In this document: in pieces, positions 22,201 through 31,200 of the stretch
Position numbering within the stretch: position 1 is the stretch's first letter
Layout: each line of letters begins with the position of its first letter
Assembly: GCA_039815375.1 (NCBI GenBank)
Contig: JBCBZJ010000004.1
Coordinates: forward strand, 32,001-96,000
Length of the DNA stretch: 64,000 bases
Source of the DNA: Verrucomicrobiota bacterium
Lineage (GTDB): Bacteria; Verrucomicrobiota; Verrucomicrobiia; Opitutales; Coraliomargaritaceae
Direction: 5' to 3'
Position numbers: made by a program

Positions 22201-25200
22201 TTAATTGTTGACTCTTTATAAAATTCCATCCAAGTTCGGTGGCATAACTTTTTTCAAACACATGCATCTTCACATACATATTCAAATGCCCTGCGGCAGT
22301 TATCTTTGGTCACCCATTTCCCCAAACGGGTCCGATGATCTGTTAGCGCAGAGATTTGAGAATCCCATGGATTCAACACAAGCGAGGGCTTGTAGAGAGC
22401 AGGCATTTCAACCGCGTATTGCGGCCGAATGTTTAGAGAACACTAAACGATGAAATACCTGAAAGACTTTCTTAAAGCCCAAGCCGCAGACACCGCGCTT
22501 GGGCTTTTTTGTTTCCACCAACTACAGTTTACCGGTCTCCCTTCCACCACAGCGAAGGGTCAAACGTCACGTAAATGGCGTCCAAACCACGACTCAGAAT
22601 TTGATCGTGAGAGGGGCGAAACAGCCGTCCTTGGTGGAAACAATTAACTTTATGGTAGTTATCGCTTAATGGCTAAAGCACCTGACTGTGACTCAGGGGA
22701 TCTAGAGTTCGATTCTCAGTAACTACCCCAACCTTTCTAAGCCTCTGTCTTCCAACAGATAGGATAGCCGATTGTCTACCGGCAGATGTGGGTGCGATTC
22801 CCATCAGAGGCGCCATTTTTTATTCGGTGGTAGTTCAATAGGTAGAACGTGGCCCTGTTAAGGCCAATGTTGCAGGATCGTAGCCTGCCCACCGAGCCAG
22901 TTTACGGGAGTGTAGTGTAGAGAGTCTGCACGTCTGGTTGAAGACCAGAAAGTCATGGTGCGATTCCATGCGCTTCCGCCAACGGACAGGTAGAGCCGTA
23001 ATTGACAGCGGCGCCGGATTGTAAACCCGGAGCATCCATGCCTTGCAGGTTTGAGCCCTGCCCTGTCCACCAAATTTAACAACGTGGAGTGGCCAAATTA
23101 GCAAGGCTCCGGTCTTGGAGACCGGGAAACTGCAGGTGGTCCGGTTCCCTTCGTGCCCGGTCATGTCGTCACTTCGTTCCTCGGAACGAGTCCTGTCTCC
23201 GCGACCATTTTATGACCAAGTAGCCCAATCGGTAGAGGCAGCTGCCTCAGAAGCAGTTCAGTGGGGGTTCGAATCCTCTCTTGGTTACCAATTCAAGCCT
23301 CATTAGTTCAACAAGTAGAACAGCCGGCTTTTACCCGGTAGGCCATGGTGCAAGTCCATGATGTGGCACCAACTTGAAGCAGAGTAGCTCAATCAGTCAG
23401 AGCGCGGGTCTCATACGCCCGAGGTTGTGGGTGCGATTCCCATCTCTGCAACCATCTTAGCCCGTATCGTCTAGTAGCTAGGATCTCGCGCTTTCCACGC
23501 GATGACGCCGGTGCAAATCCGGCTACGGGTTACTTTCCTGCGGGATAGTGTAAGGGCCGCACAGCGAACTTTGACTCCGCTAGAGAAGGTTCGAATCCTT
23601 CTCCCGCAATTTTCCGGCGCAGCCGGAGACCGCTAATTATCGCTCATAGACGCTAATGGATTGAGTCGACAGGTAGATGATTCATTCGTTAATCAAATGA
23701 CACATAACACGGAATACATGGCCGATGAAGGATACGCTCTCATCGGCGCCGCATTCGAAGTCCATCGGGAACTCGGCGGTGGCCTGAGCGAAGAAATCTA
23801 CCAAGAAAGCATAGAGATCGAACTCGGCATGCGAAATATCCCATTCAAATCGAAGGACGAACTAAGGGTCTTTTACAAGCAACAGCCCCTGAACAAGCGC
23901 TATATACCGGACCTCACCGTTTCAGGCGAGATCATCACCGAACTCAAAGCCGCTAAGGAGCTCACACACGAACATCACCGGCAACTCATCAATTACATGC
24001 GAGTCACTGAAAAAGCTGTTGGATATCTCATCAACTTCGGCCCCACAGACCAACTCGAGTGGAAGCGTTTCATCCTCAGAGACTTCATTCCTATAGAGCA
24101 TCAGCGCCTATAAGCGAGAATCAGCGGTCGCCAGCTCAGCTGGCACATACAGATCACTTTTACAAATTTCCGGTCGGCGGCGCAATGCTCTCAGGCTTTC
24201 TGTCAGGTCATTGCGTTCCGCATCGACGTTCTAGACGGAAACCATGCAAACATAGCCAAATGGTAAGGCATCCTGCATCACAGGAAAGATGCCGGTTCGA
24301 ATCCGGCTGATTGCACCGATACTGTTAGCTCAGATAGGTAGAGCAGTTGACTGAAACTCAACTTGTCCCGGGTTCAATTCCCGGACAGTAAAATGGATAG
24401 TAGAGCAAATGGTTAGCTCACAGGATTAAGGTTCCTGCGGATGGAGGTTCGAATCCTCCCTACCCGACAAAGGGCTTGGCCGCCCTCTAAAGGCCTCCAA
24501 AACCGCCCAAGGAGAGAACGGGCGACTCGTGAAAGCCAGGCACAGCCACCACATCATGCGGGTGGATGCGCCAGCAGTTTCACCACCTGCGAGGATGCGG
24601 ATACCGGATATCTCAAACCTCAGGCCTACGAAGTGAAGAACCGGCCCATCGATCTGCACCGCATGTCGACCGGATCACCGCAAACTCATTTTGAAACGCC
24701 TCAGGCGCGGAATTCCTTAAGCATCATCCCGTGGTCCGAAGCTGTGGCGGATCGTCTCATCCGAACTCTCTGCGGGCACAACTTTCATAAAGGGTAGCGC
24801 AGGTCCGTCCCGGACCGCACATAACGCATACCGGACGCCTGAGGGCAGGCCGTCCCTACCTTTCTCGCAGCGTCTATAGAGGCGACTGCACCAAACATAA
24901 CCCAAACGAATAACAATCATGCTATTCTTCAAATACATCAACATCCCGTATGAGTATGTCGGTTTGAAATTCCGCGATGGCCAATTCGTTGAACTGCTCC
25001 AGTCCGGACGCCAATGGATCTTCGATCGATTCGGCCGCACTGTCGTCAACATTGTATGGCAAGGCGACCCATGGATCGAAATTTCCAAGGCCCAACTGAA
25101 GCAGCTTCGCGAAAACGACGCCGTCAACGGATATGCCGAATTCATCGATATGAAGGACAATCAACGCGCCCTCGTTTGGCTCGATGGTCGTTTCTATGGC

Positions 25201-28200: not shown

Positions 28201-31200
28201 ACGAATCGAACGTCGTCTCAAAGACCAGAAGCTTTCAATCAACGACACCTGGAGTGGCATCAAAGTATGGAAAATTCTCCGCTACTTCGACCGACACATC
28301 CAGCCACTGATAAAGCTGTGGGACGAAGCCACTCTGGAAGCTGCCCTCTGGTTCCTTCGTGAAGAGCTCGGCATGGAGCAAGTGTATTACCACACTTGGA
28401 ATACAGGCCTCTGGTTTAAGCGCCTTGAGCCTAACTTTGCTCCACCCCGCTCGCTCTACACCAAGCTACCACAGCGCTTCGGCTTCGACTGCGTCGAGCA
28501 GGGCCCGGAGTTCATCCTCGAACAACCGGAAAACCGCCGACGCCTCAAAAGTAAACGCAACAAACATGAATCGCCAAAATGGTGGTTCATGAATTTAAAA
28601 CAAACCGCATAAGGAAATACAATGAACGCAGAAGACCTACGTCGTTGGGGTATCCCTCCAGGAGATGCCATGCGACTCACATTCCAAATCATCAAACGGC
28701 TATTTAATGAATCGATTCCAGCCGAGACTGTTCGCTCGCAGCTACTCGCAGTGATTCATCAACCATCCGCGCACCTCAACGATTCGCATTGGAGTGAACT
28801 CGCTCAGATGCTTGATGAGATCACTATCTTCGAGCCACGTGCCGAGCCAGCACCTTACCATCAATGGGGTAAGGATCTTGATGCAAACGCCATCGAACAA
28901 ATGAGGAATGCCTGCCAACTGCCCATCGCAGTGGCTGGAGCACTCATGCCTGATGCTCACCTAGGATACGGACTACCAATCGGAGGCGTCCTCGCAACAA
29001 AAGGCGCAGTCATCCCATACGCAGTCGGTGTCGACATCGCCTGTCGTATGAAGCTGACCGTGCTCGACCTGCCGCTCAAGCACTTCGAGAAACGCACCAA
29101 GATCGACCGCTTGAAAAAAGCGATCGAAGCTGAAACGCGTTTCGGAACCGGTGCCCGTTTCCAGAAAGATGCCATCCGCAACCACAAAGTTATGGATGCC
29201 GACTGGTCGATCACCAAGGTGACGGCCGCAGCTAAGGACAAAGCTTGGACACAACTCGGAACTTCGGGAAGCGGCAACCACTTCGTCGAGTTCGGTATCT
29301 TCGAAATCGAGACAGATGAACTAGGGCTGGGACCTGGCCAGTACATCGCCCTCCTCTCCCATAGCGGAAGCCGAGGCGCAGGTGCAGCCGTTGCCGGGCA
29401 CTACTCGAAGCTCGCCCGCGAAGCTCATCCAGAGCTACCGGACAAGCTGAAGCATCTGGCATGGCTCGAAATGAATAAGGAGTCCGGTCAAGCATACTGG
29501 GCAGCGATGAACCTCATGGGCGATTACGCGGCAGCCAACCATAGCTGTATCCATAAACATATCGCACGTCACCTCGGAGCCGAAGTCCTCCTCGATGTTG
29601 AGAACCACCATAACTTCGCGTGGAAGGAAGAGCACCTCGGCGACGAGCTCATCGTTCATCGCAAAGGGGCAACACCAGCGGGTAAAGGCATAATGGGAAT
29701 CATCCCTGGATCGATGGCTAGCCCAGCCTACCTCGTCCGAGGAAAAGGCAAGGCAGAGTCCCTCAACTCCGCATCTCACGGAGCTGGACGTGTCATGTCC
29801 CGCCGAAAGGCAGCTGAACACCTTCGCTGGGAAGATGCGAACAAGCTCCTTAAAGCACAGCAAGTTGAGCTCATCTCGGCTGGCCTCGATGAAGTCCCGG
29901 CCGTCTACAAAGATATCGAAACCGTGATGGACGCCCAAAGCGACCTCGTCGAAAAACTCGGCCGCTTTCATCCACGACTCGTCAAGATGGCACCTCCGGG
30001 AGAACGTCCTGAAGATTAACGAAAAGCGCCCTCAACAATGGGGGCGCTTTTTTTGCCTACACTTAAAAAAGCAAGATTTTCATCCAGAAGCTCATATTCT
30101 ATTTTTTTTAAAATCCGACACCATCTCAACCAAATCGAATATCTCCGCGCCTCCCACAGCACCAAGAAAAAGACTCGCACACGCCAAAAGGCAGAACGGA
30201 TCGAAACCGATTCGATTGGTGTTTATTTGTTTCCATTAGTGAGCAAAATAACTGCCTATACATGAATCTACAAATCGCCCAATTGCTCTCCGAACTCAAA
30301 ACAAAGGCACGAACATCTGGGTTTGAAATCGAAACTTTTGATCAAATTGAGAAATGGCCCCTCATGGCACTGTCGCGAAATTCCAGCCGACAAGGTGGTC
30401 AAAAAGTATATATATCATCGGGCATCCACGGCGATGAACCGGCGGGGCCACTCGCCTTGCTGGAGCTCCTCGAATCCGACGCCTTACCGCGACAACACGA
30501 CTACTGGATCTGCCCCGTCTTAAATCCCGCTGGGCTCGACGCAGGCACTCGTGAAAATACCGACGGCCTCGATCTCAATCGTGACTATCGCGAACCTCAG
30601 TCTTCCGAAATCCGGGCACATATCTCCTGGGCGAAGCAGCATATTCCCCCGCTCGATCTCGCCCTCCACCTCCACGAAGACTGGGAGGCCAAAGGCTTCT
30701 ACCTCTACGAACTCAACTTCAGTGGACAACCCGGCCACGCCAATGCAATCCTTGAAGCCGCCGCCAAGCACCTGCCCATCGACACCACAAACGAAATCGA
30801 CGGCAGTCCCGCAAGTGGCGGCATCATCCGCCCTCAGACTTTACCCGAACTCGAAGAAGGCTATCCTGAAGCCATCTACTTCCAGCAACAATTCGGCGGC
30901 CTCAACTACACCCTCGAAACACCCTCCGGCCTCCCACTCAAACAACGCATCGCAGCCCACAAAGACGCCATCCTCACCGTGCTCTGACTCTTTGCTGAAC
31001 TGCCAACAAACCAGACCGCATAGCTTGAACTTTCGCATTGGCCTGATTGCATTGGATCTATGAATCACTGCCTTGCTTTATGCTTCCTTTTTATCGGTGC
31101 ACTTCTTTCAGCCGCGCCAACCATTGAAATTCTTGCCGAGCTGAACTATCGACGTCCGGGCAACCCCGCAGTGACGCCGGACGGCACCGTGTATTTTTCA

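Follow-up and report, generated by a model that had tools for sequence, protein, structure and literature searches.

A 49-nt double-hairpin element in the T-loop of an array tRNA-Pro gene, most likely a family-specific miniature mobile DNA element

Described systems and the layout of the locus

In its published account, the L-array of the Anabaena trn operon is a long, patchily distributed and redundant tRNA array near rtcB, with some tRNA pseudogenes and frequent insertions and deletions (PMC8421152). A related neighbourhood places RtcB near a Band-7 protein and tRNA-like genes (b7a-tRNA; bioRxiv 10.1101/312249, citing Burroughs and Aravind 2016). The locus studied here, in a window of 64,000 nt (the whole stretch of DNA that was analysed), resembles both: its supernumerary tRNA genes form a long, co-oriented array of patchy distribution, and a Band-7 gene, adjacent tRNA-like genes and RtcB lie together. 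A tRNA array with Band-7 and RtcB is already published in outline. Unlike the Anabaena operon as described, this array is preceded by a terminator-bearing leader and has a host repeat inside its genes, and unlike the b7a-tRNA neighbourhood, the block contains an additional protein with a predicted GNAT fold (protein X) and an unrelated 415-aa gene. The features are as follows.

22450..22641, + strand: leader, with an ATG and short reading frame, then a hairpin and U-tract (~22475-22511), then a ~130-nt structured RNA
22655..24468, + strand: tRNA array with 12 called genes, and Tyr and Pro in addition, both uncalled (default/relaxed ARAGORN, Rfam)
22984..23072, + strand: uncalled tRNA-Tyr(GUA) with a long variable arm (from its fold and called orthologs), redundant with a housekeeping copy on contig C14
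23083..23207, + strand: tRNA-Pro(UGG) with interrupted T-loop (from sequence reading), redundant with a housekeeping copy on contig C52
23138..23186, no strand assigned: 49-nt double-hairpin element replacing T55, with imperfect 7-bp terminal inverted arms if the flanking T and purine are counted
23214..23290, + strand: tRNA-Leu(CAG), intact here (ARAGORN); the ortholog in genome G044 has the element at the same position
23615..24201, + strand: separate insertion within the array, a GxxExxY / PD-(D/E)XK_3 gene (23718-24113) between inverted repeats
24168..24468, + strand: conserved hairpin (24168-24240), then three abutting tRNAs (fold; ortholog comparison)
24919..26034, + strand: SPFH / Band-7 protein (PF01145, E 2e-32)
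26230..27477, + strand: 415-aa protein of no family, between SPFH and X
27626..28612, + strand: protein X, an unnamed family with 595 relatives and a predicted GNAT-like fold
28622..30019, + strand: full-length RtcB RNA ligase (PF01139, E 8e-87)

The insert in tRNA-Pro has likenesses of its own. Like REP, REPIN and CGTC-tagged repeats and bacterial MITEs, the element is short, non-coding, multi-copy and lineage-restricted, with two hairpins and tandem units (PMC3733652, PMC6006769). Unlike the GTAG/GTGG or CGTC REPs of those accounts, it has no invariant end tag: GTGG occurs in 42/98 copies, partly made up of target bases, and TCGTC in 33/98, where it is internal. Nor was it found beside the Y1 transposase genes of the source genome, where no match to the element lies near any of the three Y1_Tnp matches. 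Its 7-bp arms are shorter than the terminal inverted repeats of MITEs, and it makes no target duplication. A DDE-type MITE, which would show a target-site duplication and terminal inverted repeats of 15-30 bp, was rejected on these grounds, 83 of 98 copies being without flanking duplication. Distinct from both groups are the replacement of a base in tRNA T-loops and the tie to duplicated tRNA 3′ ends. Group I introns of tmRNA likewise enter the T-loop after a U; unlike the element, they average 293 nt and end in G, whereas removal of the 49 nt leaves the loop unrestored (PMC11915505). A group I intron was set aside, since the preceding U is present but the last base is A (or C), the length is 49 nt where a catalytic core takes up some hundred bases, and Rfam has no intron match. 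Rfam assigned the insert and spacer regions to no family, whether intron, ribozyme or other, and the literature searched, a set that excludes most subscription journals and all supplements, held no description of the element.

The 49-nt element and its insertion sites

A preliminary description had placed two further tRNA genes, missed by ARAGORN and Rfam, in a gap of the array, and both were confirmed. The type-II tRNA-Tyr(GUA) folds as a cloverleaf (z -2.88), and its orthologs in L002, L004 and L140 are called by relaxed ARAGORN. Its anticodon-stem A-C mismatch is inherited rather than fresh decay, because it is common to L002, L004, L130 and L140. In tRNA-Pro(UGG), the acceptor, D, anticodon and T stems are all intact around the insert, as described, and so is the CCA. 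The insert is 49 nt long rather than 50, the earlier count having included the closing C56. T54 is at 23137, the insert at 23138-23186 and C56-G57 at 23187-23188, and the 49 nt stand in place of U55. ARAGORN calls Pro(tgg) after the insert is replaced in silico by TTC. The reported insertion polymorphism at one T-loop position inside tRNA genes also held: tRNA-Leu(CAG) is intact here and carries the element in G044, in which the Pro gene is interrupted as well.

Matches to the element were found in 62/100 family genomes, and in a phylum sample it was present in 22/26 family genomes versus 1/374 others. The source genome has 16 to 19 copies; two viral contigs also carry the element, neither copy at a tRNA. 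Its stems vary with compensating changes among copies. The triloop of the first hairpin is T-N-C in 51/72, with all four bases seen at N, and the opposite strand therefore reads as GNA loops. GNA minihairpins of DNA are stable. One strand is favoured only slightly in folding energy (by 0.6 kcal/mol on average; 74/90).

The following counts of contexts are biased by search patterns that require T-loop-like flanks, and they include orthologous, non-independent insertions. Among 98 distinct copies, 52 follow a tRNA or tmRNA gene that is intact, with a second copy of that gene's 3′ end beyond the insert (17 tRNA types plus tmRNA), 43 are in other contexts and the remaining 3 interrupt complete tRNA genes, each in a redundant array. 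The scan of the genome collection missed the G044 copies, so the list is not exhaustive. In the tRNA-linked copies, the base after the element is that of the upstream gene's position 57 in 50/52, and the two bases before T54 agree in 52/52, non-GG cases included. Other targets are the antisense D-loop TTCG of a tRNA-Ser, a MITE family (11 filled and 8 empty among 25 matches) and a reading frame in G067, which we take to be IS4-like and of which empty copies were looked for and not found. At tRNA-Pro, one DNA contig (run X3) joins 23137 to 23187 with a single T between; the contig is the only one, its depth is 2.5 and its shorter side covers 21 nt at 85% similarity, so this empty allele may come from another organism. 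The element enters a T-pyrimidine-C site, mostly T54-T55-C56 in the T-loop of a tRNA or tmRNA; the junctions and empty alleles show that it replaces the middle base of the site without target-site duplication. At housekeeping genes, only the intact-gene form with a repeated 3′ end is seen; the plain disrupting form persists in redundant array tRNAs (three copies).

Origin of the interrupted tRNA-Pro and movement of the element

Being multi-copy and non-coding, with homologous sites both filled and empty, the element fits a miniature mobile element in the broad sense. It is most likely a non-autonomous mobile DNA element specific to this Opitutales family, and not an intron. Because housekeeping genes show only the intact-gene form while redundant array tRNAs keep the disrupting form, the array tRNA-Pro is most likely a pseudogene, which the preliminary description had listed as an alternative and which we rate the better reading. 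In agreement, the G044 Pro copy is degenerate as stated there, its T stem having lost the 5′ strand. We consider it very probable overall that a non-autonomous mobile element entered the array tRNA-Pro and made it a pseudogene, with RtcB unrelated. The intact stems count against this explanation, as does the distribution of the gene: only 2/401 order genomes were found to have it, each in interrupted form, which is compatible with a retained ancestral insertion. No intact copies appeared in metagenome or viral pattern scans.

In a different account, the insert is a new short tRNA intron, cut by an unnamed nuclease and sealed by the adjacent RtcB. Three array tRNAs are hit at the same T-loop position with tRNA stems intact, RtcB is in the same block in both genomes with interrupted array tRNAs, and group I introns in tmRNA T-loops exist (PMC11915505). 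However, no single excision restores the T-loop, because U55 is absent; none of the 8 possible 7-nt loops from a single deletion is TTCGAGT. Moreover, 95/98 copies lie outside any full tRNA gene, the element is far more widespread than RtcB (62/100 against 6/100 family genomes) and in the G044 Pro no T stem is left for splicing to rebuild. We regard this intron as extremely improbable and splicing of the insert by RtcB as unlikely. The tie between interrupted tRNA and RtcB implied earlier finds no support either, since the element is mostly found without RtcB, cannot be excised to a canonical loop and interrupts complete genes in redundant arrays only. Somewhat less remote, and still improbable, is that an RNA made from the gene escapes splicing and is retained, tRNA-like but with a larger T arm, serving as a nuclease decoy or a partner in Band-7/RtcB repair. 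The intact acceptor, D and anticodon stems and CCA would fit, the element ends could lengthen the T stem, and array tRNAs have been proposed as nuclease sponges (PMC8421152). Yet the fold of the interrupted RNA is no more stable than those of shuffled sequences (z -0.96), its lowest-energy fold disrupts the T stem, the first hairpin of this copy has a mismatch and the gene is deleted in sister arrays (in the closest, those of G032 and G033, Pro and Leu(CAG) are both gone entirely). Spread by gene conversion between T-arm look-alikes, with the T-loop consensus as microhomology and no mobilising enzyme, would simply account for the missing T55 through copying of a donor allele, and tandem units are found. 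Against it, junctions fall within ≤1 base of the element ends, the flanks track the recipient and copies also occur in unrelated sequences without T-arm likeness, making this route highly improbable.

As a mobile element, the insert would probably pass through a folded single-stranded DNA form on which a nicking enzyme acts in trans, with repair then copying it in. Tentatively, the leading candidate enzyme is a small tRNA-linked GIY-YIG nuclease; a Y1/RAYT-type HUH transposase seems a weaker prospect, and an enzyme of another kind could well be responsible, at somewhat below even odds. Of 30 small GIY-YIG loci, 20 have a tRNA or tmRNA no more than 400 nt upstream, and only 3 have the element in front. 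Small GIY-YIG proteins are encoded at C12:87300 in the source genome and in L079, among others. Like the SegB-type homing endonuclease of the tRNA clusters in phage T4 (PMC8421152), these GIY-YIG genes are tied to tRNA genes; unlike SegB, their proteins are ~80 aa, stand apart from most element copies and are putative nucleases. No enzyme gene enclosed by an element copy was found in 20 regions chosen for partial or half matches. A Pfam scan of 102 ORFs beside element copies (omitting 6 of the 107 listed and adding 1 other) gave chiefly housekeeping genes and one GIY-YIG. It is conceivable, though doubtful, that the element and the ~80-aa nuclease form a two-part selfish system without transposase or integrase. 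The nuclease would nick folded single-stranded DNA at T-loop-like sites, host repair would copy the hairpin in with one base replaced, and a fold-back copy and duplicated tRNA 3′ end would often be added during repair. If true, such a system would move DNA by a new route and would generally give rise to broken bacterial tRNA copies.

A tempting story of a tRNA intron spliced by RtcB gives way to a well-defined small element with a precise junction rule, which recognises T-loops over 17 tRNA types and tmRNA. The tRNA T-loop is a site that many integrases use. The element is a natural test of tRNA gene dispensability, and explains why annotation tools overlook some tRNA genes of the family or report them as fragments.

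The surrounding array, leader and RtcB block

RtcB, whose active-site motifs are present, appears to be part of the known array / Band-7 RNA-repair context and unrelated to the insert. Its reported rarity stood for the congeners (0/8), while the count among family genomes is 6/100 instead of 5/100. SPFH homologs occur in 18/401 order genomes, source genome included. The SPFH-X-RtcB block is looser than the "conserved" cassette claimed earlier: in 18 related SPFH loci, several of which stop at contig ends, tRNAs accompany 16, X 6, RtcB 2 and X together with RtcB 1, and here the 415-aa gene intervenes. This gene was not found in the 18 related loci and has distant homologs elsewhere in the lineage (7/30 relatives, 23-29% identity). 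Protein X had no match in Pfam, NCBIfam, PDB sequences or named Atlas clusters. Its structure model (pLDDT 92.7) predicts a GNAT-like fold, with a best structural match of Z 9.5 (rmsd 3.3, 124 aligned), top rows almost all GNATs and a best Foldseek E of 0.09.

Upstream of the array, the ORF at 22450 probably represents a leader rather than a protein gene, and the region is a candidate translation-coupled attenuator. The leader is matched in 15/18 related loci, its frame is not maintained past the hairpin in L124, L127 and L128, and double changes occur at 7/17 predicted pairs (14 sequences). Rfam has no family for it.

The array has 14 tRNAs in total. Rather than the 13 called genes reported before, we count 11 by default ARAGORN or 12 by Rfam or relaxed ARAGORN, and the genome encodes 10 of the 11 default-called anticodons at other loci too. 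Its horizontal acquisition, as proposed, is supported by homologs in 3/100 family genomes, all of other genera (74-96% identity over matched pieces only), and in 0/8 congeners. The three abutting tRNAs after the hairpin have anticodons that vary among orthologous arrays, and are probably of the Band-7-associated type, going by the b7a-tRNA passage of bioRxiv 10.1101/312249. A weak YrlA match (Rfam, E 0.72) covers two neighbouring tRNAs and was set aside. The array is also the target of other small insertions, and one DNA contig is without 23615-24201, with 40 different letters at the junction.

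The tRNA array and its interrupted proline gene

The array and the insert in its tRNA-Pro(UGG) gene are a real feature of this genome, and the region is laid out as follows (window positions).

22450-22641, leader: a short reading frame that ends in a terminator-like hairpin, followed by a structured RNA with covariation
22655-24468, tRNA array (ARAGORN, Rfam)
23083-23207, tRNA-Pro(UGG)
23138-23186, the element: a 49-nt double-hairpin repeat in the T-loop of tRNA-Pro(UGG)
24919-26034, SPFH/Band-7 gene
26230-27477, 415-aa gene
27626-28612, protein X gene
28622-30019, RtcB gene

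Default ARAGORN called 11 tRNA genes in the array and Rfam with relaxed ARAGORN added Asp(GUC) at 22741, so the 13 called tRNAs of the preliminary description were not reproduced. Its proposal that the gap at 22982-23213 contains two uncalled genes, Tyr(GUA) and Pro(UGG), was borne out. tRNA-Tyr(GUA) is predicted to fold into a cloverleaf, three related arrays have orthologues of it that are called, and its anticodon-stem mismatch is common to four. In tRNA-Pro(UGG) every stem is present, with 49 additional bases between T54 (23137) and C56 (23187), and ARAGORN called Pro(tgg) once the insert was swapped by script for TTC. The same insert interrupts the orthologous Leu(CAG) of another genome, G044, at the same position, as previously described, and likewise the G044 Pro gene. 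Housekeeping genes for Pro(UGG), Tyr(GUA) and Leu(CAG) are each present elsewhere in the source genome.

The leader is conserved ahead of 15 of 18 related loci and resembles an attenuator followed by structured RNA, making it a candidate attenuator; the structured RNA has no Rfam match. The last three tRNAs (24246-24468) abut and carry anticodons ATC, GAA and AAG, which vary freely among orthologous arrays (L124-L141; TCA, CAT, TAT, ACG and others elsewhere). Upstream of them is a long hairpin (24168-24240), and upstream of the SPFH gene a stretch of ∼300-400 nt with conserved motifs (24500-24790); both recur across several families and have no Rfam match. A GxxExxY nuclease-family gene flanked by inverted repeats lies within the array (23615-24201), and gene-less copies of the flanking repeat replace tRNAs in three other genomes (G032, G033 and G044). 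The G044 array also contains other short palindromic repeats, which interrupt its tRNA-Asn gene and occupy gaps (L004:1820-1940, 1050-1200). In some related arrays the tRNA-Pro gene measures 97-98 nt and encodes a long variable arm, a feature uncommon among proline tRNAs (L130:4803-4899, L134:5107-5204, L141:3908-4004).

Distribution and insertion sites of the element

Matches to the element occur in 62 of 100 Coraliomargaritaceae genomes, and in a phylum sample it was present in 22/26 family genomes versus 1/374 others. Scanning species genomes for an exact pattern identified 48 loci, with titles all of Opitutales-level taxa or Verrucomicrobiota; 18 more were in metagenomes and two in viral contigs. 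The source genome has 19 profile hits (E up to 1) and 16 pattern hits. Since the element is family-wide, yet of 18 related arrays retrieved, most of them belonging to other families, only that of G044 contains it, we infer that a repeat of the host lineage entered an incoming array.

The 98 distinct copies fall into three contexts: 52 follow an intact tRNA or tmRNA gene, three split a full tRNA gene (Pro(UGG) here, Pro and Leu(CAG) in G044), and the other 43 are in neither position. These context counts, and the junction counts below, are inflated by search patterns that required T-loop-like flanks and by repeated counting of orthologous insertions. The 52 that follow a gene share a single layout: intact gene, trailer, a small hairpin whose last bases are positions 52-54 of that gene, element, and the gene's 3′ end repeated from position 57. 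The trailer is often followed by the T-arm 3′ strand in inverted copy (on average 5.7 matching bases; shuffles averaged 3.6, with a maximum of 4.4; n = 34). The base 3′ of the element equals position 57 of the upstream gene in 50/52, and the two bases preceding T54 agree with that gene in 52/52, including AG, GA and CT cases. The element has also entered the antisense D-loop TTCG of tRNA-Ser genes, TTTCAG-rich repeats, an IS4-like reading frame in genome G067 and a ∼240-bp MITE-like family of the source genome. Of 25 hits to this family, 11 are filled, eight empty, one internally deleted and five not alignable; empty copies have two bases in place of the 50-nt form, and the filled copies may stem from one event. 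Members of this family (C54:107-395, C11:42584-42882 and others) have short terminal inverted repeats, and the element is nested in some of them.

Over 90 distinct elements, the first-hairpin stem varies with compensation (CGC/GCG, CCC/GGG, CAC/GTG, CTC/GAG). Triloops are T-N-C in 51/72 first hairpins, with all four middle bases seen, and in 29/60 second hairpins. Read on the opposite strand, these triloops become GNA loops, a type of very high stability in single-stranded DNA; the two strands differ little in folding energy (0.6 kcal/mol). Because the junctions are base-precise despite unrelated flanks, the sequences point to involvement of an enzyme. No element adjoins any of three Y1 transposase matches in the source genome, and none of 20 regions examined held a gene-enclosing copy. 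Small GIY-YIG genes are present in 35/100 family genomes; of 30 such loci retrieved, 20 follow a tRNA or tmRNA within 400 nt and only three stand behind an element. The source genome has one, ∼60 nt behind tRNA-Met (contig C12). These ∼80-aa genes stand directly behind tRNA/tmRNA 3′ ends with hairpin-rich leaders, sometimes as tandem units (L094-L123; source genome C12:87300-87500).

In its behaviour the element resembles REP, REPIN or MITE-type repeats, but it lacks the tags, repeat lengths and target duplication given for them (PMC3733652, PMC6006769); flanking duplication was absent in 83 of the 98 copies. No description of the element was found in the literature outside subscription journals and supplements.

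Fate of the interrupted tRNA

The array tRNA has very probably been inactivated. Counting against this, the array Pro gene was found in only 2/401 genomes of the order, is interrupted in both, and both blocks carry RtcB. Splicing is highly improbable: U55 is gone, so no single deletion restores the T-loop (none of eight possible 7-nt loops is TTCGAGT), and the element occurs in 62/100 family genomes whereas RtcB occurs in 6/100 (0/8 congeners). Moreover, the G044 Pro gene has a fold-back hairpin where the 5′ strand of its T stem should be, and Pro and Leu(CAG) are lost from the two closest arrays. Group I introns in the tmRNA T-loop (PMC11915505) have G as their last base, restore the loop on removal and are 293 nt long on average, in contrast to this 49-nt element without restoration.

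When four DNA runs were compared with the array, one contig joined 23137 to 23187 via a single T, giving an intact T-loop. This single contig (depth 2.5; short side 21 nt at 85% likeness) matches the predicted empty allele exactly but weakly.

The SPFH, X and RtcB genes

The preliminary description saw a conserved SPFH-X-RtcB cassette. It recurs in G044, but conservation is limited: SPFH homologues occur in 18/401 order genomes and, in the 18 loci fetched (several of which end at contig ends), tRNAs are found in 16, X in six, RtcB in two and X with RtcB only in G044. Here, SPFH and X are not adjacent, as the 415-aa lineage gene lies between them. L-arrays near rtcB have already been described (PMC8421152), and Band-7, RtcB and a tRNA-like gene have been described together (Burroughs and Aravind 2016, as cited in bioRxiv 10.1101/312249).

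A confident structure model of protein X predicts a GNAT-like fold; the protein has 595 relatives. These ∼600 relatives are unannotated and share invariant E177, E178, Q180, D182 and H150. Further upstream of the array, 13011-16390 encodes a HATPase-domain protein, an HNH endonuclease and a Vsr endonuclease, resembling a restriction/defence block.
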